Made by a program: the position numbers and the translations under genes. The notes below the pieces were generated by a model. The model saw only the letters and a program-made list of their open reading frames with translations, was not told where the DNA came from and made no database searches. Positions 25,509 to 49,180 of a stretch of 64,000 nucleotides of DNA are shown here, one piece after another; within the stretch, counting starts at the first letter, position 1, and each line of letters opens with the position of its first letter. This stretch comes from Bacteroidota bacterium (GTDB lineage Bacteria; Bacteroidota; Bacteroidia; Bacteroidales; ML635J-15), in the NCBI GenBank assembly GCA_029564465.1, contig JAKQPY010000096.1, positions 15,025 to 79,024 on the forward strand, given 5' to 3'.

Positions 25509-25994
25509 ATGGGTTCCGCATTGGTGCAGGAAATAATTAGCGAAAAAAAAATCACCGACAAATCGGGACTGCTCATGCTGTTGCAGATATTGCAGGAACG
25601 GACAGGTGTGATTCAATATCATGATATTGTTGATATTTCGAAACAACTGGGCATAGCAGAAAGTAAAATATTCGGCATTGCCAGCTTTTACAATTACTTC
25701 CGATTTATCCCTAAAGGGAAATTTCACATCGAAATTTGTACGGGCACCTCTTGTTATCTTTGCGACTGCGAGAAGATGACAGCCGAACTTACACGGCTAA
25801 CCGGTCTCTCCAATGGAGAATTAAGTCGCGACGGACTAGTGTCGATAGAGCATACCGGATGTTTGGGGGGATGTTCGCAAGGTCCGGTTCTAAAAATCAA
25901 TGATAGTTTTTTTACACATGTTGATGTTGCGAAGCTCCGGAACCTTGTTTCTAAATTACAGTCGGGTGAGATGCCTGAAGAAATGAGCGTTTGA
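25509..25994 (+). CDS. NuoE/HydC-like thioredoxin-fold [2Fe-2S] subunit
   Basis: Cys pattern CTGTSC (Cx4C) ... CLGGC (Cx3C) with GPVLKIND, typical of NuoE/HndA. The ATG at 25509 was chosen. The ORF-track extension to 25386 is hydrophobic junk overlapping the divergent promoter. Confidence 0.85.
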   Translation: MGSALVQEIISEKKITDKSGLLMLLQILQERTGVIQYHDIVDISKQLGIAESKIFGIASFYNYFRFIPKGKFHIEICTGTSCYLCDCEKMTAELTRLTGLSNGELSRDGLVSIEHTGCLGGCSQGPVLKINDSFFTHVDVAKLRNLVSKLQSGEMPEEMSV

Positions 25995-25995
25995 A

Positions 25996-27858
25996 ATGAA
26001 TACACCGCTCGAAATAAACAAATCGAAAACAGCACCGTCACAGATATTTCTGCAAACGGGCACCTGTAGCATAGTTGCAGGTATAACCAAAACCAGGGAT
26101 GCATTTATTCAATACATCGAAAGTCATCAGATAGATGCCGACCTGATTGAGACCGGTTGTATGGGCATGTGTTCCAACGATCCGGTTGTCGATATTTTGA
26201 TTCCCGGAAGAAATAAAATCAGCTTTCGCAGGGTGATGCCATCGGATGTGGCTATTATATGCGACTGTATTTTCAATAATATTTTGCCGGAAAAAACCCA
26301 CATTCTGGGGCAGTACAAAAGCAACGACCGTTTTCCCTGGGAATTTGTTCCTTATATTGATGAACTCCCGTTTTTTGCGACACAAAAAAGAATACTTCTT
26401 TCCGGGATCGAAACAATCAGGCCCGATAGTGCCAGCGATTACGAAAGCCTTGGTGGTTTCACTGCCTTGCTCAAAGCCATCAGAACAATGACACCTGCAG
26501 CTGTCTGCAGCGAAATAGCCGAAAGTGGTCTGACCGGGCGCGGCGGCGGTGGATACAGCACTGGCAGTAAACTTCGGACGGTGTTGCAGCAGCATTCTTA
26601 CAAAAAATATTTGATATGCAATGCCGATGAAAGCGATCCGGGATCATTCTCGGGAAGATTACTCGTAGAAGCAAAACCTTTTTTACTCCTTGAGGGAATC
26701 ATCATTGCAGCCTATGCATCCGGGGCAAATCAGGCAATTATTTATATCCGCAACAAATACCGCTTATCTATTGATCGTTTGCAGCGTTGCATCCATCAGT
26801 TATATGAACTCAAGTGGCTGGGAGATGACATTTTAGACAGCGGAATAAACCTTCGGATCAGTATTTACGAAAGTCCGGGCGCCTTTGTTTGTGGCGAAGA
26901 AACAGCCCTGATTGAAAACCTTGAAGGGAACCGGGGGATGCCTCGTACCAAACCGCCTTATCCTGCCATCAGTGGCTTACATGGTATGCCTACCGTGGTA
27001 AACAATGTAGAGACACTGTGCAATATTCCTGCAATAATCAGCAATGGAGCCGCATGGTTTCGCAGCATTGGGAATAACAACACTACGGGAACCAAGTTAT
27101 TTTCTGTTTCAGGTAAAACCGAAATCGGGGGTGTAGTCGAGATCGAAATGGGCAGTACCATCAGACAGGTTATTGATGCATGTGGCGGACCTCAATCGCA
27201 TTCCGAAATAAAGGCAGTGCATCTGGGTGGACCGTCGGGAGGCTTGGTGCCTGTCGAAGACTTTGGGATTCCCCTAGACTACTATCATTTAGATAAACAA
27301 AAACTCTACCTGGGCTCGGGCAGCTTTGCCGTATTAGATCAGGAAAACTGTATTGTGAATACCTGCCGCTATTTTATGGAATTTATCGAGGGCGAAAGTT
27401 GTGGGAAATGTATTCCTTGCCGCGAAGGCTCACAGCGTATTACAGAAATCTTTAAAAGAATATCGAACAAACCCAACGATGCTGAGGAATTTGCCACACT
27501 ACTGCGTTTTAAGGGTGTGATGCAACTGGAACAGATGGCGGAAGTGATGCATGAAACATCATTGTGTGGTTTGGGTCAGCATGCGCCCAATGTGGTTACC
27601 ACTGCATTAAAACATTTCAGAGAAGAGTTTGAGGAGCATATTTTCGAGCGAAAATGCAGGGCAGGAGTATGTAAAAATCTTAAATCCTACTCGATAGACC
27701 ACACGGCATGCACCGGGTGTGGTATGTGTGCAAAACGCTGCCCTGCTGATGCAATTGCCGGTAGTTTGCGGCAAACACATTATATTATCAGCGAGCGCTG
27801 TATCGGATGCGGGATGTGTATGGAATCGTGTAAGTTTAACGCCGTTATTCTCAAATAA
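25996..27858 (+). CDS. NuoF/HydB-like NADH- and FMN-binding subunit with C-terminal 2x[4Fe-4S] ferredoxin domain
   Basis: GLTGRGGGGYSTGSK (FMN), CNADESDPGSF (NADH), ESCGKCIPCREG...LCGLGQ (N3-type 4Fe-4S), and C-terminal CTGCGMCAKRCP / CIGCGMCMESC. Confidence 0.9.
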   Translation: MNTPLEINKSKTAPSQIFLQTGTCSIVAGITKTRDAFIQYIESHQIDADLIETGCMGMCSNDPVVDILIPGRNKISFRRVMPSDVAIICDCIFNNILPEKTHILGQYKSNDRFPWEFVPYIDELPFFATQKRILLSGIETIRPDSASDYESLGGFTALLKAIRTMTPAAVCSEIAESGLTGRGGGGYSTGSKLRTVLQQHSYKKYLICNADESDPGSFSGRLLVEAKPFLLLEGIIIAAYASGANQAIIYIRNKYRLSIDRLQRCIHQLYELKWLGDDILDSGINLRISIYESPGAFVCGEETALIENLEGNRGMPRTKPPYPAISGLHGMPTVVNNVETLCNIPAIISNGAAWFRSIGNNNTTGTKLFSVSGKTEIGGVVEIEMGSTIRQVIDACGGPQSHSEIKAVHLGGPSGGLVPVEDFGIPLDYYHLDKQKLYLGSGSFAVLDQENCIVNTCRYFMEFIEGESCGKCIPCREGSQRITEIFKRISNKPNDAEEFATLLRFKGVMQLEQMAEVMHETSLCGLGQHAPNVVTTALKHFREEFEEHIFERKCRAGVCKNLKSYSIDHTACTGCGMCAKRCPADAIAGSLRQTHYIISERCIGCGMCMESCKFNAVILK

Positions 27859-27859
27859 G

Positions 27860-29515
27860 ATGCAAGTCGAAATTACAGTAAACCGTACTAAAATTCAGGC
27901 ACGCAAAGGCGAAACAATCCTGACGGCATTACAGCGTAACGGAATAAAAATACCAACCCTTTGCAATCTTCCTGAACTTACTCCCACAGGTGCCTGCCGG
28001 CTATGTGTGGTAGAGGATGAAGATACCCGGCATTTGATTCCAGCCTGCTCGACTCCGGTACAAACCGGAATGAAAATATTAACCCATTCACCCAAAGTAA
28101 TCAGAAGTCGCCAGACAATTATCGATTTACTCCTGACGAATCACCCGGACGATTGCCTTTACTGTGATAAAAACCGTCGTTGTGAGTTGCAGTCACTTTC
28201 CGAAGAACTTTATATAAGAGAAAGACTTTTTACCGGTGTTAAAAAGAAGGGTAAAACCGACCGTTCGAGTCAGGGCCTGGTATTCGACATGTCGAAGTGT
28301 ATTTTATGCGGACGCTGTGTAAAGGTATGCTCCGAAATTATAGGCGTTGCTGCCATAGACCATGTGTACCGTGGCAAGCGTTCGGTGGTAGATACCGTAT
28401 TGGGGAAAGGACTATATTATTCTTCCTGCATTCAATGCGGGCAATGCATCAACATTTGCCCGACAGGTGCCCTGCGCGAAAAATCGGCTATAGAACAAAT
28501 TGCTGCCAAAATTGGGCAGGAGTCTGTGAAAATATCGGTAATACTTTCGGCATCATCCGTGGCTTCGATAGCAGCCGTATTTGGAATCCGTAAGTTTGAA
28601 GAAATGACTGAAATGCTGGTGGCTGCTTTGAAAGACACCGGATTTTCTACAATAGTGACCGATAGCTTCGCATCCGATCTGTACTTTGCTGATGCCACAT
28701 CCCTGATTTGTGAGCGAATTGTGCAACCCGATTTTAAAATGGTAATTTCCGATTGCCCTGCTGCCATTCAATGGGTGAAGCAAAAACATCCTGAATTTGC
28801 CCATTTTTTGGTGCCTTTAAGATCACCACAGCAGATAACCGGTCGCATGTTAAAGCGGGAGACCAATGGTAGTAACAATATAGTGGTAGCCGTAATGCCA
28901 TGTATAGCACGTAAAACCGAAGCACTTCAACCCAATAACCTGACCCGCGGTTTGCCTGATATTGATTTTGTGGTTACCACACACGAATTACTTCATTTAC
29001 TCCGTACCCGCGGTGTGACCATGCCATTCCCCAAAAGATGCACCGTCGATAAACCATATAACATATACAGTTCTTGTTCTGTGTTGCACGAATATAATGG
29101 TGGTTTCGCTGAGTCTCTGGTCAGGAATCTGTTAAGTACGGAGGGGAAAAATTCTTTCGATAGTAAATATACCGAACTAAGGGTAAACAAACCTGTGAAA
29201 ACATTCGAAACCAGTATTTCGGGTCGCAACCTGAAGCTTGTTTCTCTTAATGGCATGCAGGCAATCAATGAGTATTTTTTGAAATATGTAACCGACAACA
29301 GTGTACATATAATCGAAATTTCGTCGTGCGTTGGAGGCTGTATCAACGGCAGCAGCCAGCTCGATAGTGAAGCAAGTATTTCGGGCAAGGTGTTACTCGA
29401 TTTCGAAAGTTCAGGTTTACTGCGTAATTCGGTGCAGAATGCCATAGTGAAAGGTATGAGTTCCGACAATGTGGTTAAGCCGATTACACGCTACGAATCA
29501 AATTCTGAATTGTGA
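27860..29515 (+). CDS. HydA-like protein: NuoG-type Fe-S N-terminus + [FeFe]-hydrogenase H-cluster domain with non-canonical motifs
   Basis: N-terminal plant-type 2Fe-2S (CNLPELTPTGACRLC), His-ligated cluster HPDDCLYCDKNRRCELQ, and 2x CxxCxxCxxxCP. H-domain motifs are SDCPAAIQW (28748-), MPCIARKTE (28895-28921) and EISSCVGGCINGSSQ (29315-29359). The ATG at 27860 is 1 nt after the nuoF-like stop. Confidence 0.8.
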   Translation: MQVEITVNRTKIQARKGETILTALQRNGIKIPTLCNLPELTPTGACRLCVVEDEDTRHLIPACSTPVQTGMKILTHSPKVIRSRQTIIDLLLTNHPDDCLYCDKNRRCELQSLSEELYIRERLFTGVKKKGKTDRSSQGLVFDMSKCILCGRCVKVCSEIIGVAAIDHVYRGKRSVVDTVLGKGLYYSSCIQCGQCINICPTGALREKSAIEQIAAKIGQESVKISVILSASSVASIAAVFGIRKFEEMTEMLVAALKDTGFSTIVTDSFASDLYFADATSLICERIVQPDFKMVISDCPAAIQWVKQKHPEFAHFLVPLRSPQQITGRMLKRETNGSNNIVVAVMPCIARKTEALQPNNLTRGLPDIDFVVTTHELLHLLRTRGVTMPFPKRCTVDKPYNIYSSCSVLHEYNGGFAESLVRNLLSTEGKNSFDSKYTELRVNKPVKTFETSISGRNLKLVSLNGMQAINEYFLKYVTDNSVHIIEISSCVGGCINGSSQLDSEASISGKVLLDFESSGLLRNSVQNAIVKGMSSDNVVKPITRYESNSEL

Positions 29516-31500
29516 TGGATCCAAAAAAAATAATATATACGGTCGAAGACCGATGTGAGGTTTGCTACAGTTGTGTGCGTGTTTGTCCAGCCAAGGCAAT
29601 CAGTATTAAAAACGGTCAGGCTCAAGTGATACACGAACGCTGTATTGCCTGTGGAAATTGTGTGAAAGTGTGTACCCGGGAAGCCAAGAGATTCAGGGAT
29701 TCAGCTGATGAACTGATTGAGATGCTCGGTGCGGGAGAATCAATAATTGCCTGTATCGCTCCCAGTTTCCCAGCCGAATTCAGAGAAGTTGCCGATTACA
29801 GATATGTTGTAGGTATGTTCCGTTCACTGGGATTCAGCAAGGTTGTTGAAGTTGCTTTTGGTGCCGATCTGGTAGCCAGGGAATATATTAAACTGCTTAA
29901 TGACCCCGACGGTAAAAAATTCATTTCTTCCGATTGTCCGGCAGTAGTAAACTATATTACCAAATATCACCCGCATCTTACCGAGAATCTGGCACCCATA
30001 GTATCGCCGGTGATGGCACTTGCCCGTGTTTTAAAAAAGGAATATGGTACAAAATATAAACTTGCTTTAATCAGTCCCTGTATTGCAAAGAAATCGGAAT
30101 CCAACGAAATTGATGTTGTTCTCACATTTAAAGAGATTCGCGAAGTATTCCGGATGAAAGGTATTGAGTACCAGCACTGTGAGCCTACGGAGTTTGATCC
30201 GCCGTTAAGTGGCCGTGGTGCCATTTTCCCTGTTTCGAGGGGCATCATTCAAACCATCAATGTTTCCGAAGATTATGTCGATGGGAATGTGGTGGTTGCC
30301 GATGGAAGGTTAAGTTTTAAAGAAGCCATCAATGAGTTCGACAATGGCCTGATTGCCGACCAGCATCTCGAGCTGCTTTGCTGCGAAGGTTGCATCATGG
30401 GGCCCGGAATGTCATCGCAGGGAAAGCCTTATCAAAGCCGGGCTTACGTAACCCGCTATGTAAAAGGCAAATTAAAAAACATCGACCGTAAGTATTGGAA
30501 AAGTCAGGTAAATAAGTACAAAACGCTCAATCTTCAACGCGAGTTTACTCCCGACGACTGCCGTGTAGTGTATCCTTCGCCCGATGAAATTATGAGCATT
30601 TGGAACTCGATGGGCAAAACCGAAGCCATCGACCGTCTCGATTGTCAGGCCTGTGGTTACGAATCGTGCAAAGAGCATGCCGTAGCCGTATTGCGAGGAC
30701 TGGCCGAAATCGACATGTGTTTACCTTATATGATAAAAAAACTTCACCAATCGATTGGTGAACTGAATTTAAAAAATCAAACCCTGGCTTCGGTGCAACA
30801 GGCATTAAAGCAAAGCGAAAAACTGGCCCATCTGGGGCAGTTGTCGGCAGGTATTGCCCATGAACTTAACAACCCGCTGGGTGTGGTAATTATGTACAGT
30901 AACATTCTTATTGACGAAGCAAAACCCGATGACCCACAGGTCGAAGACCTTAAAATGATTGCCGATCAGGCCTTACGCTGTAAAAACATTGTGGGCGGAT
31001 TATTGAATTTTGCACGTAAGAACAAATTGAAAGTCGATAATATCAATATAAGTTCATTAATCAATCGTTCACTGAAATCATTGGTAATACCGGATAATAT
31101 TAAGGTACATACTGCTTTTCAGCTCAAAAACGATCAGGCGGGTCTCGATGAAGAACAAATGATACAGGCATTAACAAATATTATTAAGAACGCTATTGAA
31201 GCCATGCCCGATGGGGGAAGCCTTAATGTCACGGTAAGCGACCGAAATGATATCATTAAAATTGATATTGCAGATACCGGAACAGGCATTGAACAGGAGC
31301 ACATGGATAAAATATTTACGCCGTTTTTTACCACCAAAGGACTTGGAAAAGGAACCGGACTGGGTATGCCTACCACTTACGGTATCATTAAAATGCATAA
31401 TGGGAAAATACACATCGAAACCAATGCAGATGCTGAAAGAGGTAATACCGGAACCACTTTTAGTATCGAAATTCCACGCTATAATAACCAAGTAAGTTGA
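29515..31500 (+). CDS. sensory-type [FeFe]-hydrogenase domain fused to a histidine kinase (HydS-like::HisKA-HATPase)
   Basis: 2x[4Fe-4S] (CEVCYSCVRVCP, CIACGNCVKVCT). H-domain motifs are SSDCPAVVNY, SPCIAKKSE and LLCCEGCIMGPG. Cx2Cx4C...C motif CQACGYESC...MC (30643-30720). Coiled coil, H-box AHELNNPL (His codon at 30859), N/G1/F/G2 boxes. Start is ATG 29515 (TGATG overlap) or GTG 29512. Confidence 0.8.
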   Translation: MDPKKIIYTVEDRCEVCYSCVRVCPAKAISIKNGQAQVIHERCIACGNCVKVCTREAKRFRDSADELIEMLGAGESIIACIAPSFPAEFREVADYRYVVGMFRSLGFSKVVEVAFGADLVAREYIKLLNDPDGKKFISSDCPAVVNYITKYHPHLTENLAPIVSPVMALARVLKKEYGTKYKLALISPCIAKKSESNEIDVVLTFKEIREVFRMKGIEYQHCEPTEFDPPLSGRGAIFPVSRGIIQTINVSEDYVDGNVVVADGRLSFKEAINEFDNGLIADQHLELLCCEGCIMGPGMSSQGKPYQSRAYVTRYVKGKLKNIDRKYWKSQVNKYKTLNLQREFTPDDCRVVYPSPDEIMSIWNSMGKTEAIDRLDCQACGYESCKEHAVAVLRGLAEIDMCLPYMIKKLHQSIGELNLKNQTLASVQQALKQSEKLAHLGQLSAGIAHELNNPLGVVIMYSNILIDEAKPDDPQVEDLKMIADQALRCKNIVGGLLNFARKNKLKVDNINISSLINRSLKSLVIPDNIKVHTAFQLKNDQAGLDEEQMIQALTNIIKNAIEAMPDGGSLNVTVSDRNDIIKIDIADTGTGIEQEHMDKIFTPFFTTKGLGKGTGLGMPTTYGIIKMHNGKIHIETNADAERGNTGTTFSIEIPRYNNQVS

Positions 31501-31501
31501 T

Positions 31502-31885
31502 ATGAAAACCCACACGATTCTCATTGCCGACGATGACTACGATTACCTTTATCAGATGTGTTATCACATAGAAGATGCAGGTTTTACTGTAATTAAGGCC
31601 AATAGTCAGGCAGAAGCAGAAGCCGTAATTGGTGAGCTAAAACCCGACCTTGCCCTTTTCGACTTAATGATGGAAAACCATGATAGCGGTTTTGTACTTG
31701 CCTATAAGATGAAAAAAACATATCCCGATGTGCCGGTAATTATTGCTACGGCTGTTGCCGGTGAGACCGGACTGAATTTCGGGAACGGAAATCAGGGAGG
31801 CTGGGTTAAAGCCGACAAATACCTTGAAAAAGGAACCAGTCCACAGGTAATCATCGAAATTATTAAACAAATGCTCGGAATATAA
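31502..31885 (+). CDS. single-domain response regulator (REC only)
   Basis: 127 aa. ILIADDD ... DLALFDLMM (acceptor Asp) ... PVIIATA ... K. No output domain. Confidence 0.85.
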   Translation: MKTHTILIADDDYDYLYQMCYHIEDAGFTVIKANSQAEAEAVIGELKPDLALFDLMMENHDSGFVLAYKMKKTYPDVPVIIATAVAGETGLNFGNGNQGGWVKADKYLEKGTSPQVIIEIIKQMLGI

Positions 31886-31886
31886 T

Positions 31887-33005
31887 ATGGAAAACCTGAA
31901 AATTCTTGTTGTTGACGACGAACCCGGCATTCGCATGGGTGTACACAGGGTACTCGATAAATTTGTGGTTGACTATCCCTTTATGGACGACTCCATAGGT
32001 TTTGATGTTGACGATGCCTCAACCGGTGAAGAAGCGCTCGAAAAATTGAACGCTGTTACTTACGACATAGTCTATCTCGACAATAAATTGCCGGGAATTC
32101 AGGGAATCGAAGTGCTCGAACATCTCAACAAGGCAAATCCTGCCACCAAGGTTATCATGATTACATCGTATGCCTCACTTGAGCTGGCTGTGCAGGCTAC
32201 CAAAATGGGAGCCCATGATTTTGTTCCAAAACCCTTCACACCACAGGATCTGCGCTCTTCTGCCGAGAATGTGACCAAACAGATATTCCTGAAAAGAATG
32301 ATGCAGAAAATGTATAAGGAAGGGAAACAAATCCGTTTCCAATTCTTGTCATTGTTGTCGCACGAATTGAAAGCCCCTTTGAATGCCATTGAGGGATATC
32401 TGAAAATAATGATTGAACAGAAAGAAGGTAAAGACATAGCCTCTTACGACAAAATGATCAGGCGTTCGCTTGACCGTGTTAAAGATATGCGCTCGCTTAT
32501 TTTTGATCTGCTCGACCTTACAAAGATTGAATCAGGTGAACTGGCAAAGAAAACCGAAGATCTCAATCTTTGTGAAGTATTGAAAAACTCGCTTTCGTCG
32601 ATTCAACCCATGGCAATACAAAAGGACATTACACTGGGTTGCAACCTGAGCTACCCGGTTATTTACAAAGCCGACCCGCGTGATATGGAAATCGTCTTCA
32701 ACAACCTGTTGTCGAATGCAGTAAAATACAATCGCCAGAATGGCTCAATTTCGTGCGCCGTATCCGACACAAGTACGCAAATTGAAGTCAGTATTTCCGA
32801 CACGGGTATTGGTATGACACCCGAAGAAATCGACAGAGTTTTCGGGGAATTTGTCAGAATTAAAAACGAAAACACACGCAATATTCCGGGAAGTGGCCTG
32901 GGATTGGCTATTGTTAAAAAAATTCTTGACAGTTATAACGCCTCCATCAGGGTGCAAAGCACTCCGGGCGAAGGCTCTGTATTTACAGTTACATTTAACA
33001 AATAA
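31887..33005 (+). CDS. hybrid REC-histidine kinase (N-terminal receiver, C-terminal HisKA + HATPase_c)
   Basis: ILVVDDEPGIR ... VYLDNKLPG ... FVPKPF (REC). H-box SHELKAPLN, N-box LLSNAVKYN, G-boxes DTGIGM / GSGLGL. Confidence 0.85.
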   Translation: MENLKILVVDDEPGIRMGVHRVLDKFVVDYPFMDDSIGFDVDDASTGEEALEKLNAVTYDIVYLDNKLPGIQGIEVLEHLNKANPATKVIMITSYASLELAVQATKMGAHDFVPKPFTPQDLRSSAENVTKQIFLKRMMQKMYKEGKQIRFQFLSLLSHELKAPLNAIEGYLKIMIEQKEGKDIASYDKMIRRSLDRVKDMRSLIFDLLDLTKIESGELAKKTEDLNLCEVLKNSLSSIQPMAIQKDITLGCNLSYPVIYKADPRDMEIVFNNLLSNAVKYNRQNGSISCAVSDTSTQIEVSISDTGIGMTPEEIDRVFGEFVRIKNENTRNIPGSGLGLAIVKKILDSYNASIRVQSTPGEGSVFTVTFNK

Positions 33006-33010
33006 TAACT

Positions 33011-33631
33011 ATGTTACCTGAAAAAACCACCGAACGTTTGAGCCAGTATCGCCGTCTGCTTCAGAACCTGTCGGACGAGGGGAAGGAATATATTTTTTCG
33101 CACGAAATTGCATTGATGTTGCACCTGACTCCCGTTCAGGTCCGTCGCGACATTATGCTTATCGGATATAACGGTTCACAACGAAAAGGCTATATCATTC
33201 ACGATCTGATTCAAAAACTCAGTCAGGTACTTGACTCGGAACAGTGTCAAAATGCTGCCGTTTTTGGGGTGGGTAATCTGGGCAAGGCGATTACCAGCTA
33301 TTTCAATGGCAAAGGTCATAATATTAATATTGTGGCTGCTTTCGACAGTGACCCGCAAAAAACCGACAGAATTATCTCGGGCGTTTGGTGTTACGATATT
33401 AAGCAAATAAAAGAGATTGTTAGCGAGAATAATATTTCGCTGGCCATTCTTACTCTGCCACCCCAATATGCCCAGGACATTACCGATAAGCTGGTTTATG
33501 CGGGAATTCGCGGAATACTCAATTTTACCAGTGTTCCACTAAGGGTGTCGCCCGATGTATATGTCGAAAATTACGACATGGTTACATCGCTCGAAAAACT
33601 GGCATACTATGTTAAAGAAATAAATCGTTAA
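33011..33631 (+). CDS. rex: redox-sensing transcriptional repressor Rex
   Basis: 206 aa. N-terminal winged helix (RLSQYRRLL...VQVRRDI..IGY) and a Rossmann fold (VFGVGNLGKAI...AAFDSDP...ILNFT), characteristic of Rex. Confidence 0.85.
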   Translation: MLPEKTTERLSQYRRLLQNLSDEGKEYIFSHEIALMLHLTPVQVRRDIMLIGYNGSQRKGYIIHDLIQKLSQVLDSEQCQNAAVFGVGNLGKAITSYFNGKGHNINIVAAFDSDPQKTDRIISGVWCYDIKQIKEIVSENNISLAILTLPPQYAQDITDKLVYAGIRGILNFTSVPLRVSPDVYVENYDMVTSLEKLAYYVKEINR

Positions 33632-33639
33632 GATATAGC

Positions 33640-34539
33640 ATGAAAGTACATTATAACTTCGATGATTTTGGAACAATCAAAAATCCAGTCGTTACCACGG
33701 GTTCTTTTGATGGCGTTCATACCGGGCACCGCGTGATAATTCAGCGCATTAATTTTTTGGCAAAAGCCATCGATGGCGAATCTGTTCTCATTACATTTTA
33801 CCCGCATCCACGTAAAATATTGTTTCCGAACGAGACTCAGGGCTTGTTCATGATTAACACACCGGACGAAAAAGAATACTTATTGTCGAATACAGGTCTA
33901 GATCACTTGTTTATTATCAACTTTACCATTGAGTTTTCGAAAACCCCATCCGAAGTTTTTGTCAAGGATATATTACTCGCAAAACTGGGTGCAAAAATTA
34001 TCGTGGTTGGGTTTAATCACCATTTCGGACATAATCGTCAGGGCGATTACCAGTACTTGTATCAACTAAGCAAGGTGGCAAACTTCAGGGTTGAAGAAAT
34101 TCCGCAACAGGATATCGAAAACGAAGCTGTAAGTTCAACCCGTATCCGTAAAGCCATACTCGAAGGGAAAATTGGCAGGGCCAACGCCTATCTGAATCAT
34201 CCGTTTTTCTTCATTACGCAACACCTGAAAGCGAGGAAAGCAGTGTTCGAAAATTTTTTACAATATACTGTTACCGATTTATTGCCGGAAAAAATTCTTC
34301 CTCCCTCTGGTAGGTATGCGGGTAAACTATTAAATGTCAATGGAATAACATATATTTTGTGTGATATTTTTGCTAACAGGTTATACTTTTACCTGAATGG
34401 TGATTTTGCTGATTCCGACATGAATAAGGGCATTATAGAACTGCATATGCAAATAAGAACATTTACTGATGAAGAAGATTTAAACATTTACGATAGCTTT
34501 ATGCCGGATGTTGTGTTTTTATCGGAATTGATTTATTAA
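33640..34539 (+). CDS. ribF: RibF-like FAD synthetase (FMN adenylyltransferase domain intact; riboflavin-kinase domain apparently degenerate)
   Basis: N-terminal motifs GSFDGVHTGH, TFYPHPR, VVGFNHHFG and SSTRIRK are present. In the C-terminal domain the expected G(R)xxGFPTAN reads KARKAVFENFLQ. Confidence 0.7.
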   Translation: MKVHYNFDDFGTIKNPVVTTGSFDGVHTGHRVIIQRINFLAKAIDGESVLITFYPHPRKILFPNETQGLFMINTPDEKEYLLSNTGLDHLFIINFTIEFSKTPSEVFVKDILLAKLGAKIIVVGFNHHFGHNRQGDYQYLYQLSKVANFRVEEIPQQDIENEAVSSTRIRKAILEGKIGRANAYLNHPFFFITQHLKARKAVFENFLQYTVTDLLPEKILPPSGRYAGKLLNVNGITYILCDIFANRLYFYLNGDFADSDMNKGIIELHMQIRTFTDEEDLNIYDSFMPDVVFLSELIY

Positions 34540-34570: not shown

Positions 34571-35884
34571 ATGAAAGTTGTTATGATAGGTACCGGTTAT
34601 GTGGGTTTGGTTTCGGGAACCTGCTTTGCCGAGATGGGTGTACATACTGTTTGTGTTGACATTGATACAGTGAAAATCGAGAACCTGAAAAAAGGCATTA
34701 TCCCCATTTGGGAGCCCGGTCTCGAAGATATGTTAAAACGTAATTTTGAGAGTGGCAGACTGAGCTTCTCGACAAGTATTGCCGAAAGCATCAGCGGGGC
34801 TGACGCCTGTTTCATTGCTGTGGGAACTCCTCCTGACGAAGATGGCAGCGCTGATCTTCAATACGTTCTGGCTGTCGCCCGCGAAATTGGGAAAAACATT
34901 TCCGACTATCTGGTGGTAGTAACCAAAAGTACAGTTCCTATCGGAACATCCGAAAAAGTAAGAACCGCTGTTCAGGAGGAGATAAGCCTGCGGGGTTTAA
35001 GCATTAGTTTCGATGTGGCCAGTAATCCTGAATTTCTGAAGGAAGGCGATGCCATCGATGATTGTATGCACCCCGACAGAATTGTTATCGGTACCGATTC
35101 CGAAAGGGCACAGGAATTGCTGAACCGTCTTTACAAACCTTTTGTTTTGAATGGCCACCCCATCATTTTCATGGATATTCCCTCGGCTGAGATAACCAAA
35201 TATACGGCCAATGCCATGTTGGCTACGAAAATCAGTTTCATGAATGATATTGCCAACTTCTGTGAACTGGTGGGTGCTGATATTAACGCTGTGAGAAAAG
35301 GAATCGGCAGCGACAGACGAATAGGACAGTACTTTATTTATGCCGGAACGGGTTATGGGGGTTCCTGTTTCCCAAAAGATGTAAAAGCAATCATTAAAAC
35401 AGCTGATAGCAAAGGTTATTCGCTCGAAATTCTCAAAGCGGTGGAGGATGTTAACGACCGGCAGAAATCGAGATTGTACCAAAAAGCCATGCAATACTTT
35501 GGGAATAATCTGCAGGGAAAGAAAATTGCGCTCTGGGGACTTTCGTTCAAACCCAACACCGACGATATGCGTGAAGCTCCGGCGCTGGTTCTGATACAAC
35601 TTCTGGTGAAAGCCGGATGCAAGGTAGTCGCTTACGACCCCGTAGCCATCGAAGAAACCAAACGTAGAATTGGCAACATTATAGAGTATGTCGAAAATCC
35701 ATACGATGCAATTGTTGATGCTGATGCTCTTTTCTTAGTTACCGAATGGACGGAATTCAGGGTGCTGAACTACGAAAAAATGAAAACAATGCGTCATAAA
35801 ATTATTTTTGACGGCAGAAACATATACGACCCCAAAGAATTGCATGCCCATGGGTTTGAATACTTTGGAATCGGACGAAAATAA
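34571..35884 (+). CDS. ugd: UDP-glucose 6-dehydrogenase
   Basis: MIGTGYVGLVSGTCFAEMG (NAD fold), catalytic GGSCFPKDV, and the C-terminal UDP-binding domain. Confidence 0.9.
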   Translation: MKVVMIGTGYVGLVSGTCFAEMGVHTVCVDIDTVKIENLKKGIIPIWEPGLEDMLKRNFESGRLSFSTSIAESISGADACFIAVGTPPDEDGSADLQYVLAVAREIGKNISDYLVVVTKSTVPIGTSEKVRTAVQEEISLRGLSISFDVASNPEFLKEGDAIDDCMHPDRIVIGTDSERAQELLNRLYKPFVLNGHPIIFMDIPSAEITKYTANAMLATKISFMNDIANFCELVGADINAVRKGIGSDRRIGQYFIYAGTGYGGSCFPKDVKAIIKTADSKGYSLEILKAVEDVNDRQKSRLYQKAMQYFGNNLQGKKIALWGLSFKPNTDDMREAPALVLIQLLVKAGCKVVAYDPVAIEETKRRIGNIIEYVENPYDAIVDADALFLVTEWTEFRVLNYEKMKTMRHKIIFDGRNIYDPKELHAHGFEYFGIGRK

Positions 35885-35893
35885 CATCCTTAC

Positions 35894-36145
35894 ATGGAAA
35901 AAACAGTAGAAATAACCATTTGCCTTGGCAGCTCATGCTTTAGTCGCGGTAACAAAGAAATGGTGAGTGTGATTCAGGACTATCTCGAGGAACACAAACT
36001 CAAGGAACAGGTCAAATTTAAAGGTGGCCACTGCTTTGGTAATTGCAGCAATGGACCGGTAATAAAAATAAATGGTCAGCCCTATTATGGGGTTTCCAAA
36101 ATCGGTATTACCGATATTCTGAACCAGGCGTTTAACCTCGAATAA
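35894..36145 (+). CDS. small thioredoxin-like [2Fe-2S] ferredoxin (NuoE-fold, HfsA-like position)
   Basis: 83 aa. CLGSSC (Cx4C) ... CFGNC (Cx3C) ... GPVIKING. It lies 9 bp after ugd and 11 bp before the H-domain-PAS gene. Confidence 0.7.
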   Translation: MEKTVEITICLGSSCFSRGNKEMVSVIQDYLEEHKLKEQVKFKGGHCFGNCSNGPVIKINGQPYYGVSKIGITDILNQAFNLE

Positions 36146-37992: not shown

Positions 37993-39177
37993 ATGCACAA
38001 CGACTTTTTCATAGAAATTGATGCCCGACAGATAAACCATCAGGGTCAAAAAATCTGCGGAGATGTGTTCATGAAGCGTCGTATCAAAGAGGAGAACCGT
38101 TTTATTGTGGTGTTGAGCGATGGCATGGGACATGGTGTAAAAGCCAATATCCTTGCAAGCCTTACGGCAACCATGGCCATGAATTTTACCATTGAGCACC
38201 GCGATCCGGGACGAATTGCCGAAATCATCATGAAAACCCTGCCGGTGTGTAAGGAACGGAAAATTGCCTATGCCACCTTTACCATAATTGATGTTACTAC
38301 GCACGATAAGGTTCAGATTATTGAGTACGACAACCCGCATGTTATGGCTTTTCGTGACGGAAAGCCCATGCAGCTCGACTGGCACGAAATTGAATTATCG
38401 AAATACGCCCAACACGACAAAAAGCTGTTCACTACAGGTTTTTATCCTCACCTGGGCGACAGGCTTATTCTGGTTTCCGATGGGGTAGCCCAGTCGGGCA
38501 TGGGTTCCGAAACATTCCCATTTGGCTGGGGTGTCGATAAAATTACGAACTATGTAGCTGGGCTGATTGAGGCCGATCACAATATTTCGGCAGCCCGTTT
38601 GTCCGAAAAAATTGTCAACCGCTCAGTACTGAACGATGGCTATAAATCGAAAGACGATACCAGCTGTGCTTCGCTCTACTTCAGAGAACCCCGGAAATTG
38701 CTGCTGGTGACCGGTCCACCCTTCGAAGCCTCCTATGATGCGCGTTTGGCGACCATAATCAGAGAACACAGCGGAAAAAAAGTGGTTTGCGGGGGTACCA
38801 CCACCGATATCGTTTCGCGTGAACTGGGGGTGGAGGTTACCGACAGCCTCGACTTTTACGACAAGGAGCTTCCTCCGGTAGCTTATATGCCGGGTATCGA
38901 CCTTGTTACCGAAGGTATACTCACCCTGAATAAGGTAAACCGCCTGTTACGTGATTTCGACAGCGACTACCTGACGGGCAAAGGTCCTGCCGACCAGATT
39001 GTAAAAATGTTTCACGAAAGCGACCGTATCGATTTCGTGGTGGGTACCAAGGTTAACGAAGCCCATCAGGATCCAAATGTTCCCGTGGACCTCGAAATAC
39101 GGCGTACCATCATAAACCGTATCGCACGTTTACTCGACGAAAAATTTCTGAAAGAAGTAAGCATCTCTTATTTGTAA
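37993..39177 (+). CDS. PP2C/SpoIIE-family serine phosphatase with extra C-terminal domain
   Basis: GDVF...VVLSDGMGHGVKA...LILVSDGV...DDTS metal-binding pattern of SpoIIE/PP2C in the first roughly 225 aa. The remaining roughly 170 aa contain no motif I recognise. Confidence 0.8.
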   Translation: MHNDFFIEIDARQINHQGQKICGDVFMKRRIKEENRFIVVLSDGMGHGVKANILASLTATMAMNFTIEHRDPGRIAEIIMKTLPVCKERKIAYATFTIIDVTTHDKVQIIEYDNPHVMAFRDGKPMQLDWHEIELSKYAQHDKKLFTTGFYPHLGDRLILVSDGVAQSGMGSETFPFGWGVDKITNYVAGLIEADHNISAARLSEKIVNRSVLNDGYKSKDDTSCASLYFREPRKLLLVTGPPFEASYDARLATIIREHSGKKVVCGGTTTDIVSRELGVEVTDSLDFYDKELPPVAYMPGIDLVTEGILTLNKVNRLLRDFDSDYLTGKGPADQIVKMFHESDRIDFVVGTKVNEAHQDPNVPVDLEIRRTIINRIARLLDEKFLKEVSISYL

Positions 39178-45036: not shown

Positions 45037-45270
45037 CCTTCACTTAACTTGAATCATTTCTAGAATAGGTAACCCGTCCTCACAAATTTAGATATTAATT
45101 CTTACTAAAAAAGTCAAGCTTTCCTTTTTGTTTCCATAAAATAATAAAATTAACAGTTCATTAAAATTACCAATTTTATGAAAAAGATGTAGTTTTTTGA
45201 AAATCATTACATTATATTCGCACATGGCTTGAACCAAAGTGAAAAAAAATTGTTTGACAAAAAACTTAGT

Positions 45271-48021
45271 ATGCCACACGATAAACTATTGTCCGGAAGT
45301 GTAAGTGCGATTTGGTTTGATGAATATTATAAGCAATTCTGCGAAGACCCGGAAAGCCTGAGCAGCGACTGGCGCAATTTTTTTGCAGGTTTCGAATATG
45401 CAACCGAAAGCACTGCAATGGATGGTGGCTCCCATTGGGTTTCCAAAGAGTTTAAAGTAGCGCATCTGATTGACGATTACCGGAAGCGCGGTCATTTGTT
45501 TACACAAACCAATCCGGTGCGTACCCCCCGAAAATTTTCTCCAACGCTTGATTTTGTAAATTACGGCCTGAGCAACGAAGACCTCGATCAGGAGTTCGAA
45601 GCGGGTATGCTCATTGGTTTGGGAAAATCCAGCCTGAGAAACATAATTCAAAAACTACAAAAGACCTATTGCAGCAACATTGGGGTTGAGTATATGTATA
45701 TCCGCAATCCCGAGGTTGTCGAGTGGCTGACCACTTATATGGAAACTGCTTCGAATACCCCTGATTTTAGTGTTAGCGTTAAGACCGATATTTATAAGGC
45801 TATCGAAAAAGCAGTTGATTTTGAACAGTTTATACATCGGCGTTTCCCTGGGCAAAAACGCTTTTCGCTCGAAGGTGCAGAAGCATTGGTACCCGGCTTG
45901 CAGTTTCTTATCGATGAGGCTGTATTGCTGGGCGTGGAAGAAATAGATTTTGGTATGGCCCATCGTGGCAGACTCAATGTGCTAACGAATATTATGCAGA
46001 AACCCTATGAAAATGTTTTCAGGGAGTTTCTTGCAAAAGAATACAGCGAAAACGATTTTCTTGGTGATGTGAAATATCACCTGGGATACCAGAGCTGCGT
46101 CACGGTACAGCAGAAGAATATCGAGCTGAACCTGCTGCCCAACCCTTCGCATCTCGAGGCGGTAGGAGGGGTTTTGCAGGGTTTTGCCCGCGGTAATGCC
46201 GACCGTAAGTTTGGCAGCGATTTCAACAAAGTATTGCCGGTGCTGATTCATGGTGATGCAGCAGTTGCTGCTCAGGGGGTGGTGTACGAAGTAATTCAGA
46301 TGTCGCAACTCGACGGTTATAAAACCGGCGGTACCATCCACTTTGTAATAAACAATCAGATTGGATTTACAACCAACTACCTCGATGCCCGATCGAGTAT
46401 TTACAGTACGGATATTGGAAAGGTTACCCGATCTCCGATTTTCCATGTAAACAGCGACGATCCGGAAGCACTGGTGTATGTGGTGCAGATGGCGGTTCGC
46501 TATCGTCAGCGGTTTCACACCGATGTTTTTATCGATGTGCTGGGGTATCGTAAATATGGACACAACGAAGGCGACGAGCCCCGTTTTACTCAGCCGGAAC
46601 TTTATGATGCCATTGCAGCACATCCCAATGTAAAGAAAATATACGCTGCTCAATTGGTTGCCGAAAATGCATTCAGTCAGGCTGATATCATTCAATCAGA
46701 AAAAGTGGTTGTCGATACCCTAGACGCCGCTTTTACATTGGCAGGAAGTCAAAACAGGGTCGATTTTTTTAAATTCAATCGTGATAACCAGCCAGTTGAC
46801 AATGCCCTGAAAGCCGATACGACGCGTATAAAAGAATTGGCACAACAGATTTTCTCCTTGCCAGCCGATGGTGGTTTTATTCCCAAAGCATATAAAATAG
46901 CCGAAGCGCGCCTGCAACGTGCAGCTGATGATAAACTCGACTGGTCGATGTGCGAAATGCTGGCTTATGCGCAGGTAGTTACTTCGGGCAGGAATGTTCG
47001 GCTCAGTGGACAAGATTCGATCAGGGGGACATTTTCGCACCGTCACTCGGCATTTTTTATAAACGATACACGAAACCAGTATTTTCCGCTTAATAGTATT
47101 ACCGGTTACAACGATGCCAGATTCAATGTGTGGAATTCGCTGCTGTCGGAATATGGTGTGCTGGGTTTCGAATATGGTTATGCCCTGGCTGACCGCAATG
47201 CATTGGTTATTTGGGAAGCCCAGTTTGGCGATTTCAACAATGTGGCGCAGGTAATTATCGACCAGTATATTTCATCTGCCGAGGCAAAATGGGGTGTGCA
47301 AAATGGTCTGGTGCTTTACCTGCCTCATGGTTACGAAGGTCAGGGTCCGGAACATTCCAGTGCCCGTATCGAACGTTTTCTTCAGTTGGCTGTTAACGGA
47401 AATATGCAGGTGGTACAACCGGTAAGCCCTGCCAACCTCTATCACATCCTACTACAACAGGCGTCAAACCCGGTGAAGCCTTTGGTGGTGTTTACTCCAA
47501 AAAGTCTGTTAAGACACCCCGCTGTTACCGCTACATTTTCGGAATTAAGCGATAACACCTTCCGAAAGCTTTTGGTTGAATATCCCACCGATCCATCACT
47601 GGTGAAACATCTTGTGTTGTGCAGTGGTAAGGTATATTACGATTTAAAGGATAAACAGAAAGAACTCAATGATACCTCACGTTGTATTGTCGCTGTCGAA
47701 ATGTTACACCCATTCCCGTTGAAGGAAATCGAAACTGTAATAAACTCTTTTGAGAATCTGGCCGAAGTGCTTTGGGTTCAGGAAGAGCCTATTAACATGG
47801 GTGCGGCCTATTATGTGGTTCGCGAAATGCGTGACCATAAAACCCGTGTTGCTGCTCGACCGGCCAGTAGTAGTCCGGCGGTAGGACTTATGGAGCAACA
47901 TTTGCGTCAACAAAAAAAGCTGATTGATAAAGCCTTTGGTTTTTGTAATTGTGTGCGACGATACGATTTTTGCGATATGCAATGTTCAAATTTTGATAAC
48001 CACGAAACGCATGAAGATTGA
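45271..48021 (+). CDS. sucA: 2-oxoglutarate dehydrogenase E1 component
   Basis: About 915 aa. Conserved blocks are [61 protein letters not shown] and [22 protein letters not shown]. The ATG at 45271 is preferred over the TTG at 45229. Confidence 0.9.
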
Positions 48022-49180
48022 AATTAAAATTCCCAGTCCCGGTGAATCTATCGAGGAGCTTGAATTGGTAGAGTGGCTGGTTGCCGACGGCAGTACTGTT
48101 GAGAAGGATCAGGAACTGGCGACTCTTGAATCGGAAAAAGCTAGCCTGATACTGGTGGCCTCCAGCACAGGAGTCATACATATTTTGCTGAAAGCACCCG
48201 CATTGGTTAAGGTTGGAAGTACAGCTTGTGTTATCGATGAGGCGAAAATTCCGGCATCAGGTTCGAACCCGGTTCAGAAATCCGTCGGAAGCGCCATAAT
48301 CTCCGAAAGCCATGTCGAAGTTTTTCAGGCCGAGTCTAAAACCAGGGTTTCTCCCGTAGCGCGCAAACTGGCTGAATTAAACGCAATCGATATTGAGAAG
48401 CTTGCACACCAGGGCGACCGAATTTCGAAAGCCGATGTGGTTAAAGCTATGCGCCGGAAATCGACTGAGAGCCGCGAAGAGAAAGTTCCCATGTCGCAGT
48501 TGCGTAAAAAACTCAGCGAAAAGCTGGTATCGGTACAGCTAAACACGGCCATGCTAACTACCTTCAACGAAGTTGATATGTTCCCCGTGCTCGAACTCCG
48601 GAAAATGTATGGCGAAAAGTTTCTGGCACAATATGGAGTGAAATTGGGACTCATGTCGTTTTTTACAAAAGCAGTTGCATTGGCTTTGAATGATTATCGC
48701 AATGTAAATGCGGCCATTAGCGGAAACGATTTGGTTTTTTATAAATACGCCGATATCGGTATTGCAGTTCAAACCAATAAAGGTCTCATGGTTCCGGTGT
48801 TGCGCGATGTTCAGGATTTGAATCTCCCCGAAATTGAACAACAAATATTTTTAATGGCCGAGAAAGCCCGAAATGCAAGAATCAGCCTTGACGATCTGAA
48901 GGGAGGAACTTTTACCATTACCAATGGAGGTGTTTTTGGCTCATTACTTTCTACACCAATTATAAACCCTCCGCAATCTGCCATACTGGGAATGCATACC
49001 ATTCAGGAAAGACCGGTAGTACGCGATGCACAGATAGTAATTCGCCCAATGATGTATGTGGCATTGTCGTACGATCACCGCATTATCGATGGCCGCGATT
49101 CGGTTGGTTTCCTGAAAACCGTAAAGAATTTAATTGAAAACCCCAAAGAACTTTTTGATTTCGGCTCTTTGGGGTCGTAG
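48011..49180 (+). CDS. sucB: dihydrolipoyllysine-residue succinyltransferase (E2 of 2-oxoglutarate dehydrogenase)
   Basis: N-terminal lipoyl domain (LESEKAS), a peripheral subunit-binding domain (VSPVARKLA), and the catalytic domain ending SYDHRIIDG. The ATG at 48011 overlaps the sucA stop by 11 nt. Confidence 0.9.

Follow-up and report, generated by a model that had tools for sequence, protein, structure and literature searches.

The NADH/ferredoxin-linked [FeFe] hydrogenases of group A3 (HydABC or Bfu-type), with solved structures from T. kivui (8a6t), A. woodii (7q4v) and T. maritima (7p5h), are commonly encoded by a three-gene unit, hydC-hydB-hydA. HydA harbors a [2Fe-2S] cluster, a His-ligated [4Fe-4S] cluster, two further [4Fe-4S] clusters and the H-cluster domain (H-domain) with its four Cys; HydB harbors the FMN/NAD(H) site, the B2/Zn-site ligands and, at its C-terminus, a ferredoxin domain; and in many A3 operons sensory hydrogenases (HydS) are encoded nearby (PMC8163306). 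The subject of this report is HydA*, the product of hydA* (27860-29515, + strand; 551 amino acids (aa)), an M3-type [FeFe]-hydrogenase-like subunit in which the Cys that relays protons to the H cluster is replaced by Asp. The gene lies in a stretch of 64,000 nucleotides, hereafter the window, from a Bacteroidota bacterium (GTDB: Bacteroidales, ML635J-15; GenBank assembly GCA_029564465.1, contig JAKQPY010000096.1, positions 15,025 to 79,024 of the forward strand). HydA* shares with the A3 enzymes the gene unit, the clusters, the HydB sites and the HydS neighbors listed above, and these enzymes are its best matches in sequence and fold. Judged by sequence and gene order, it is a strongly diverged positional ortholog of the catalytic HydA of group A3. 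We tentatively favor the reading that it is a remodelled, slow HydABC hydrogenase that would use Asp for proton exchange.

In 2022 it was stated that all catalytic [FeFe] hydrogenases have the relay Cys (C299 in CpI) and that the exceptions are sensory (PMC9563086). Asp was one of only two replacements, the other being Ser, that kept cofactor insertion; the engineered Cys-to-Asp variants (CpI C299D, 6glz; CaI C298D; CrHydA1 C169D) retained approximately 10-58% of H2 evolution, with the bias shifted toward evolution (PMC9563086). They have Asp at the proton-exchange position like HydA* and keep all other pocket and proton-path residues, which natural HydA*, known from sequence alone, does not. 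A natural Asp at position 299 of a HydABC-type HydA was not found described in the papers searched; closest come the mutagenesis study (PMC9563086) and a purely genomic survey of 2024, which noted that BfuA of Hydrogenedentota varies between Ser and Cys (PMC11406978).

The sensory hydrogenases TmHydS (group C) and TamHydS (group D) resemble HydA* in having neither Cys at the relay position nor Met at position 497 (Ser in TmHydS) and in an unconserved proton path (PMC8163306; PMC10055695; PMC10407848). An initial annotation of the window had stated that the relay Cys and the Met residues are replaced in HydS and that Asp is tolerated in place of this Cys; both statements agree with the literature (PMC8163306, PMC10055695; PMC9563086). 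The HydS proteins have the M2 architecture, a four-Cys motif at the C-terminus, in some cases PAS, and Ala299, whereas HydA* is M3-type, NuoEF-linked and A3-like. Each HydS group has its own conserved pocket, in group D with the alternative path E252-E289; the pocket of HydA* varies within its clade.

A further relative is NiFe-HydABCSL from A. mobile (7t2r), a HydABC-type core in which the C-terminal part of HydA has no diiron site (PMC9304861). The flavin subunit next to HydA*, HydB*, is most similar to its B subunit (E = 3.5e-150), and 7t2r_A matches HydA* only across the N-terminal 206 residues. NiFe-HydABCSL and other Bfu members bring a separate catalytic module (HydSL etc.), whereas the hydA* cluster contains none.

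HydA* is a diverged HydABC-type subunit

In a phmmer search of all Protein Data Bank (PDB) chains the best match to HydA* was T. kivui HydA1 (8a6t_A, E = 1e-94), in whose alignment ISDCP pairs with TSCCP, MPCIARKTE with MPCIGKKFE and EISSCVGGCINGSSQ with EVMACPGGCMSGGGQ. The motif register is identical against A. woodii 7q4v_A, T. maritima 7p5h_A and CpI, whose top-scoring entry is the engineered C299D variant, 6glz. The CpI numbering used throughout was rebuilt from the phmmer alignment and carried through a MAFFT alignment of 123 sequences, which gave the same mapping; mis-assignment of the motifs is thereby ruled out. The coordinates of L1, L2 and L3 in the initial annotation, and the motifs SDCP (29929-29940) and TSACTP that it had read in a kinase-fused and a PAS-containing paralog, proved correct on translation. 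The Pfam domains are Fe_hyd_lg_C (E = 4.6e-45), Fer2_4, NADH-G_4Fe-4S_3 and Fer4, and all ligand motifs of the full bifurcating-type N-terminus proposed earlier were found. The elements of HydA* are:

27962..28048, + strand: [2Fe-2S] motif C35-x10-C46-x2-C49-x13-C63 (translation)
28142..28183, + strand: His-ligated [4Fe-4S] motif H95-x3-C99-x2-C102-x5-C108 (translation, Pfam)
28298..28462, + strand: two [4Fe-4S] motifs, C147xxC150xxC153xxxC157 and C190xxC193xxC196xxxC200 (translation)
28691..28717, + strand: helix bearing E279, E282 and R286 in CpI, where HydA* reads D278, A279, L282, R286
28742..28771, + strand: L1, VISDCPAAIQ, with SDCP at 28748-28759 (translation, alignments)
28811..28813, + strand: Val318, at the position of the proton-path residue Ser319 of CpI (alignment)
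28895..28921, + strand: L2, MPCIARKTE, in which M346, C348, R351, K352 and E354 are CpI M353, C355, K358, K359 and E361 (alignments)
29087..29107, + strand: H410-E411...F416, equivalent to F417-G418...V423 of CpI, end of the gas channel and pocket loop (alignment)
29315..29359, + strand: L3, EISSCVGGCINGSSQ, with E486, S488 (M497 in CpI), C490, C494, G497, S498, S499 and Q500 (translation, alignments)

Asp298 of HydA* (codon GAT, 28751-28753) stands at the position of CpI C299, and the following Cys299 is C300, a ligand of the cubane; Arg351 is encoded at 28910-28912 and Ser488 at 29321-29323. All four H-cluster Cys (CpI C300, C355, C499 and C503) are present. The presence of the cluster-ligating Cys, and Asp, Arg, Ser and Ser-Ser at CpI positions 299, 358, 497 and 507-508, are thus as first described.

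In an AlphaFold2 model built on an alignment of 34 sequences the H-domain had a pLDDT of 80-95, with low values, as usual, for the cofactor-dependent ferredoxin-like domains. Foldseek returned 8a6t_A first (TM 0.73), followed by CpI and other HydABC structures. We therefore regard the modelled H-domain as an intact hydrogenase fold. The small-subunit-like C-terminal domain PF02256 is absent (Pfam).

In GenBank the protein is HOE03669.1, from a Bacteroidales metagenome-assembled genome (MAG), with the PGAP name "large subunit C-terminal domain-containing protein." The identical protein occurs on four contigs from several archives, and its sequence is therefore not a one-off error; its cluster at 90% identity has six members.

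The remodelled diiron pocket

HydA* has kept S232, R286, C300, S323, P324, Q325, M353, C355, K359, E361, E495, C499, C503, G506 and Q509. Changed are A230S, P231A, A272S, E278D, E279A, E282L, C299D, S319V, K358R, F417H, G418E, V423F, M497S, G507S and G508S. Beyond the changes in L1-L3 described in the initial annotation, the canonical proton path, the end of the gas channel and its neighbor G418 are altered too. The relay Asp, K358R, M497S, GSSQ for GGGQ, E279A, S319V, E282L, F417H and G418E set HydA* apart from the group A3 enzymes, as do the lack of PF02256, a score below the NCBIfam cut-off and, in HydB*, the lack of the Cys of the motif "GGPSGGC." Only for F417/V423 and C299/M353/M497/K358 is the assignment to the pocket backed by papers; positions 272, 418 and 507 we provisionally take to be pocket residues from their neighborhood in the sequence.

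In CpI both C299 and M497 touch the bridgehead amine, and the exchange M497L alone hampers cofactor insertion; TmHydS, a protein with a bound diiron site and H2 turnover, likewise has Ser at position 497 (PMC10055695). F417 and V423 govern gas access at the end of the gas channel (PMC11023054). E279, S319 and E282 are each required for fast turnover of CpI, as PMC6226526 is cited in PMC11803613. Among the 45 nearest canonical-looking homologs (with C299, K358 and M497) E282 and S319 are mostly kept and E279 is poorly kept (Thr in 19, Glu in 8, Gln in 7).

The HydA* lineage

The homolog set comprised 7438 sequences at E <= 1e-30; the tree was calculated by neighbor joining from BLOSUM distances and carries no support values. 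The HydA* clade, monophyletic and long-branched, consists of the nearest 21 protein clusters (P0001-17 and P0019-22), which have 542-559 aa and share 40-61% identity with the window protein. The closest relatives of HydA* are A3-type HydA proteins and not members of groups C or D, and to the H-domains of both HydS paralogs in the window the identity is low. When 1.84 billion proteins were clustered at 50% identity, the clade was reduced to two or three representatives. A scan of genomes found one clade locus (L009) among 80, and a scan of metagenomes with a subclade-specific alignment found two more. From the few representatives and the three added loci we conclude that the clade is a small lineage within the Bacteroidales. 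One predicted protein of 4122 aa (P0126) contains seven stretches matching the clade profile and might stem from run-through in gene calling or from faulty assembly.

Invariant in all 21 members are the four H-cluster Cys, P301, K359, E495 and G506. Asp299 is present in 19, the other two having Cys and Asn; position 299 is the 27th most conserved of the 285 scored H-domain positions, with a pairwise identity of 0.81 versus an H-domain mean of 0.41. Position 418 is Glu, Gln or Asp and position 272 Asn or Ser in every member, and position 507 is Cys in 18 of the 21. Each member has exactly one Arg at either 358 or 497; a representative of the majority type, P0009, has Asp299, His358, Arg497, Glu418 and Cys507. 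With Asp299, and with the contacts of C299 and M497 to the bridgehead amine in CpI, the pattern suggests that a putative Asp-Arg pair lies at the diiron site or next to it. An equivalence of the clade's Glu418 with the relay residue Glu252 of TamHydS was considered and dropped, numbering offsets without the TamHydS sequence not settling the match.

Over 19 pocket positions the mean pairwise identity is 0.54 in the clade and 0.80 in canonical enzymes, with 0.41 as the H-domain background of the clade. Since the pocket lies above this background, it appears to have been rebuilt to a new, partly conserved and more polar consensus rather than to have simply decayed. By the same alignments it is less tightly constrained than the pockets of the catalytic enzymes or of the two adjoining sensors.

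Hydrogenase or cubane-only redox module

In the favored reading HydA* would still take up the diiron subcluster: the exchange K358R is conservative, Ser497 is shared with TmHydS, and M353, P324, Q325, S232 and E361 have not changed. The distal cyanide would pair with Arg351 instead of Lys358, and Asp298 would exchange protons with the bridgehead amine, as in engineered CpI C299D; these protons would arrive along a non-canonical path, probably through water. Electrons from NADH (via FMN in HydB*) and from reduced ferredoxin (via the C-terminal domain of HydB*) would pass through the clusters of HydA* to H2. Compared with prototypical enzymes, HydA* would be expected to turn over far more slowly, with a bias to H2 evolution, and its expression would presumably be governed by other products of the same gene cluster, namely both sensory hydrogenases, the two-component proteins and Rex.

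The initial annotation had considered HydA* to be a natural Cys-to-Asp catalytic variant of an electron-bifurcating hydrogenase. The Asp is real, is conserved in the lineage and is found beside intact NuoE- and NuoF-type subunits; the remainder of the claim suffers from the loss of E279, S319, E282, K358, M497, F417 and G418, from the fast evolution of the H-domain and from a family score of 411.9 versus 765 bits. With the proton path lost in a small, fast-evolving lineage, HydA* is probably a slow or altered enzyme and not a simple natural point variant. That it is a fully competent bifurcating hydrogenase with a mere Asp-for-Cys swap is improbable and the least likely of the readings considered here: Asp is the best-tolerated replacement in mutagenesis (PMC9563086), HydA* has intact NuoE/NuoF partners in a hydrogenase-type operon, but E279, S319 and E282 have become Ala, Val and Leu, further pocket residues are replaced and the H-domain is visibly less constrained than in canonical HydA.

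Several findings also weigh against the reading of HydA* as a slow hydrogenase. The protein scores 411.9 bits against NCBIfam NF040763 ("NADH-dependent [FeFe] hydrogenase, group A6"; cut-off 765) and 226.1 bits against TIGR02512 (group A; cut-off 405.95). The canonical proton pathway E279-S319-E282-R286 reads Ala, Val, Leu, Arg and is thus lost save for R286, and several pocket positions that are small or hydrophobic in canonical enzymes have turned polar or bulky (G418E, A272S/N, G507S/C, F417H). Lys358 is found in none of the 21 clade members, being Arg in the window subclade (P0001-5) and His, Leu or Tyr elsewhere; position 497 is Ser or Thr in that subclade and Arg in the other 16 members; and position 353, invariant in canonical enzymes, is Met, Ala, Val, Ser or Thr. 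No hydE, hydF or hydG gene lies within the window. Finally, the H-domain is the fastest-evolving element of the gene cluster, with H-domain and N-domain identity in a ratio of 0.60-0.62 in the clade, as against 0.76-0.91 in sets of canonical HydA. The other clade loci compare with the window as follows (identity):

HydA* H-domain, six loci: 30-41%
HydA* N-terminal domain, same six loci: 59-69%
H-domain of the kinase-fused HydS, same six loci: 60-67%
H-domain of the PAS-containing HydS, same six loci: 54-63% (37% in L089, where the module is absent)
HydB, four of these loci: 51-54%
Rex, four of these loci: 60-67%

The HydA* H-domain evolves about twice as fast as the two neighboring sensor H-domains. 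With regard to maturation, one clade locus (L090) contains, 9.5 kb upstream of the cluster, a radical-SAM plus BATS gene of 476 aa (L090:1-516, - strand), whose N-terminal 172 residues score 117.8 bits with TIGR03955 (HydG) versus 105.9 with ThiH. This probable hydG fits H-cluster synthesis in the lineage, which the two conserved HydS would need anyway, whether or not HydA* is a recipient.

Rapid change of the HydA* H-domain, while the two adjoining sensor H-domains stay conserved, also speaks for an explanation that we hold to be possible, if doubtful: the H-domain might contain only the [4Fe-4S] cubane, with a buried Asp-Arg(-Glu) network filling the former diiron cavity. In that case HydC*B*A* would carry out no H2 chemistry itself and would serve as a flavin/iron-sulfur redox module, which might pass on or report the NADH/ferredoxin state, e.g., to the translationally coupled kinase-fused HydS. 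The clade's own polar pocket consensus (N/S272, D299, E/Q/D418, C/S507 and one Arg at 358 or 497) agrees with this, as do the scores under the curated family cut-offs, the complete absence of Lys358, with Leu or Tyr in six members, and Arg497 in most members; because C299 and M497 flank the bridgehead amine in CpI, an Asp299-Arg497 pair would occupy the place of the cofactor (PMC10055695). There is a precedent in the HydA of NiFe-HydABCSL, which has a plain [4Fe-4S] instead of the H cluster (PMC9304861), and along with the canonical HydA residues a conserved Cys of HydB was lost (see below). However, the four Cys, including the bridging one, and E495, G506, K359 and P301 are invariant over a deep divergence, although an electron relay would not obviously need them. 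The cluster encodes no alternative catalytic partner such as NiFe HydSL, an NADH/ferredoxin module lacking a third substrate has no evident reaction, and the window subclade retains M353 and has Arg for Lys358.

Position 299 outside the HydA* lineage

Asp299 is found in at least four or five separate places of the tree among canonical-looking HydA of 573-574 aa, in which K358, M353, M497, GGGQ, S319 and E282 are intact; Ser, Asn and Thr also occur at this position in such proteins. To judge from the tree, Asp299 arose several times in otherwise canonical Bacteroidota HydA. The idea that SDCP defines a clade, raised at the outset as a check by phylogeny, was rejected, Asp299 being scattered in the neighbor-joining tree of A3-like HydA and also present in kinase-fused HydS (49 of 74 loci). 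The 573-574-aa proteins with Asp299 (P0092 from Lentimicrobiaceae, P0116, P0044 and P0030) have the operon layout of HydA* (hydS-HK, response regulator (RR), RR-HK, rex, FAD synthetase). Unlike HydA*, they keep K358 (or have Arg), M353, M497, GGGQ, S319, E282, R286 and PF02256, and they stand outside the HydA* clade. On their sequences they would be better candidates than HydA* for plain natural catalytic Cys-to-Asp variants.

Variation is not restricted to Asp. About 50 of the 131 representatives nearest the clade profile are non-canonical at 299 and/or 358, all four Cys being kept. A separate class of HydA from Rikenellaceae/Bacteroidales MAGs has Ala299 (Val in L051), Thr or Ser353, Met358 and usually Ala507 with Leu or Met509, in the same operon layout (L018, L025, L029, L030, L032, L037-L039, L045, L047, L049, L051, L065, L072 and L073); Met358 is hard to square with cyanide binding. 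The sequence TSCSP, with Ser aligned to the second Cys of L1 (the cubane ligand of CpI), is found in 23 of the 131 representatives, in otherwise canonical HydA of Planctomycetota, Acidobacteriota, Melainabacteria and others (e.g., L013, L023, L024, L050 and L059-L085; P0074 and P0109).

In the kinase-fused HydS the 49 loci with Asp299 include every locus annotated to a Bacteroidota family; those without it belong to other phyla, to Melioribacteraceae (L086, L087) and to one "Bacteroidetes bacterium" MAG (L088). In Bacteroidota these sensors as a rule combine Asp at the relay position with a retained Lys358; other phyla have Thr, Ser or Pro, and the characterised sensors have Ala.

The wider occurrence of residues other than Cys at position 299 seems to be barely documented. 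One A3 HydA from Bacteroides has been tested biochemically and had a low activity (PMC12578642). When a "Bacteroides sp." HydA having Ser299 and Ala358 was used as query for homologs, no named B. thetaiotaomicron protein came up that would tie the tested enzyme to the present case.

The hydA* gene cluster

The gene hydA* is the third of a tightly packed string of 12 genes on the + strand. The other eleven are:

25509..25994, + strand: hydC*, NuoE-like thioredoxin-type [2Fe-2S] subunit, 161 aa (Pfam 2Fe-2S_thioredx, E = 6.3e-37)
25996..27858, + strand: hydB*, NuoF-like FMN/NAD(H) subunit with C-terminal 2x[4Fe-4S] ferredoxin domain, 620 aa (Pfam Complex1_51K, NADH_4Fe-4S, Fer4)
29515..31500, + strand: hydS-HK, M2-type H-domain (SDCP at 29929-29940, K358 kept), C-terminal FeS motif and HisKA/HATPase
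31502..31885, + strand: stand-alone response-regulator receiver (Pfam)
31887..33005, + strand: hybrid kinase, receiver plus HisKA/HATPase (Pfam)
33011..33631, + strand: Rex, NADH/NAD+-sensing repressor (NCBIfam NF003995, 206 bits versus a cut-off of 126)
33640..34539, + strand: FAD synthetase (RibF-related)
34571..35884, + strand: UDP-glucose 6-dehydrogenase, retained inside the cluster across the HydA* clade
35894..36145, + strand: thioredoxin-like [2Fe-2S] protein, 83 aa
36157..37989, + strand: hydS-PAS, M2-type H-domain (TSACTP, aa 135-140), FeS motif and PAS
37993..39177, + strand: SpoIIE/PP2C phosphatase

The string is kept in all clade loci recovered (L001/L002, L003, L004/L005, L009, L089, L090, L091 and L092), the conservation spanning nine distinct loci with different flanks; exceptions are L089, which has no PAS-HydS module, and L091, which ends early. 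L089 is the home of the Asn299 member P0010; it lacks the small [2Fe-2S]/PAS-HydS/SpoIIE module and is closely followed, on the opposite strand, by genes for acetate kinase and phosphotransacetylase. In L003 (18224-20089) the PAS-HydS gene is split into open reading frames of 378 and 216 aa, which suggests a frameshift or a pseudogene. The PAS-HydS of the window is itself unusual in having Thr for Pro301 (TSACTP), Gln at 358, Asn at the position of the L3 residue Glu495 and Tyr at 497. NiFe hydrogenase, formate dehydrogenase, Nfn or other oxidoreductase genes were not found in the cluster or the related clade loci, nor was a second candidate catalytic subunit found in the cluster.

The layout hydC-hydB-hydA-hydS_HK-RR-RR_HK-rex-FAD synthetase, with the PAS-HydS/SpoIIE module divergently upstream, also surrounds HydA of 573-575 aa that have Asp299 (P0092 at L006, P0116 at L007) or Ser299 (P0053 at L008) or are canonical, the latter in many Bacteroidota, Planctomycetota, Acidobacteriota, Melainabacteria and others. 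It is from this common layout around canonical and variant HydA that we consider HydA* to be a positional ortholog of the group A3/Bfu catalytic subunit and not a stray paralog. Two HydA-type genes less than 10 kb apart are found in L020 and L086-L088, so that HydA paralogy inside one cluster does occur.

The stop codon of hydA* overlaps the start codon of hydS-HK (TGATG), and the adjacency of hydA and hydS-HK is kept across phyla; in the study of Hydrogenedentota such a HydS is treated as an extra "T" subunit (PMC11406978). This arrangement would suit the alternative raised in the initial annotation that HydC*B*A* is a third, NADH/ferredoxin-coupled H2 sensor, with an H-cluster of sensor-like low activity that would signal via the kinase-fused HydS and the response regulators. 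The substitutions in HydA* also resemble those of groups C and D: 299 is other than Cys, 497 is other than Met (Ser, which TmHydS has as well) and the canonical proton path is missing (PMC8163306; PMC10055695). Residue by residue, 299, 497 and the proton path are replaced as in sensors, but M353 is kept and 299 is Asp rather than Ala. HydA* has no PAS, kinase or other output domain and no HydS-typical C-terminal four-Cys FeS motif (Pfam), whereas both paralogs in the window carry such domains. Its architecture is M3 and its nearest relatives are A3 HydA, not group C. Both bona fide sensor H-domains of the cluster are far better conserved than that of HydA*, and the pocket, conserved within the known sensory groups, is variable in the HydA* clade. 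For a third sensor we found no direct support, and we consider it distinctly unlikely: the protein lacks a signalling domain, its N-terminus is M3-type and by position it is orthologous to a catalytic subunit.

The remainder of the window is ordinary Bacteroidota DNA (type IX secretion system, LptD, 2-oxoglutarate dehydrogenase, urocanase). The genes of the E1 and E2 components of 2-oxoglutarate dehydrogenase (45229-49180), which share the window with three hydrogenase-like genes, are unexpected for a strictly fermentative anaerobe.

Partner subunits HydB* and HydC*

HydB* matches the Bfu-type B subunits in the PDB with E = 1e-139 to 1e-150. It keeps the FMN/NAD(H) motifs, the Cys and His of the [4Fe-4S] cluster near FMN and the cluster ligands of the ferredoxin domain; its B2/Zn-site ligands C452, H548, C554 and C559 correspond to C438, H525, C531 and C536 of A. 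mobile (PMC8880783). Cys is lost at residues 138 and 417, the latter (codon 27244-27246) being Leu where the motif "GGPSGGC" has Cys. That the lost Cys had been a Zn/B2 ligand was rejected: residue 417 maps to C403 of A. mobile, the ligands being C438, C476, H525, C531 and C536, all conserved or semi-conserved here. The PDB matches of HydC* include the HydC of T. kivui, T. maritima and A. woodii, and its four cluster Cys are kept. Residue 83 of HydC* (25755-25757), after the ligand Cys82, is Tyr; it is His in 48 of 49 canonical HydC and in four other clade HydC examined.

In the HydB genes of loci L001-L088 the Cys of "GGPSGGC" is kept in 48 of the 49 loci with canonical HydA and is replaced by Phe, Leu, Ile, Tyr or Ala in 24 of the 28 loci whose HydA is non-canonical at 299 or 358, which belong to several separate HydA classes (Fisher's test, p ~9e-15, the lineages not being independent). 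From these sequences the association suggests that flavin subunit and H-domain change function together. A broader proposal, which we regard as unlikely, is that HydABC of Bacteroidota repeatedly replaced the relay Cys (by Asp, Ser, Asn, Ala and others), each time with loss of the conserved HydB Cys near the flavin, and that HydA* is the extreme case with a new type of active site. As part of the same, equally unlikely proposal the pocket would consist of Asp299, one Arg (at 358 or 497), Glu418 and Cys or Ser507 on an intact cubane; it could hold a modified H-cluster with a carboxylate/guanidinium relay or perform a different redox chemistry. If true, the pocket would represent a previously unrecognised functional class inside group A3.

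Implications

The working rule that every catalytic [FeFe] hydrogenase uses Cys and that only sensors differ (PMC9563086) is faced in the HydABC-type subunits of Bacteroidota with natural Asp, Ser, Asn and Ala. These subunits grade from enzymes that are canonical in all else to the strongly remodelled lineage of HydA* and amount to a natural mutagenesis set, which could show which second-sphere and proton-path residues are required and how the catalytic bias is set. That HydB changes together with HydA is a hint that the flavin subunit may communicate with the H-domain, a point that bears on the mechanism of bifurcation. The natural set also matters for the question whether the annotation "group A3" in Bacteroidales from gut, rumen and sediment stands for active H2 producers.

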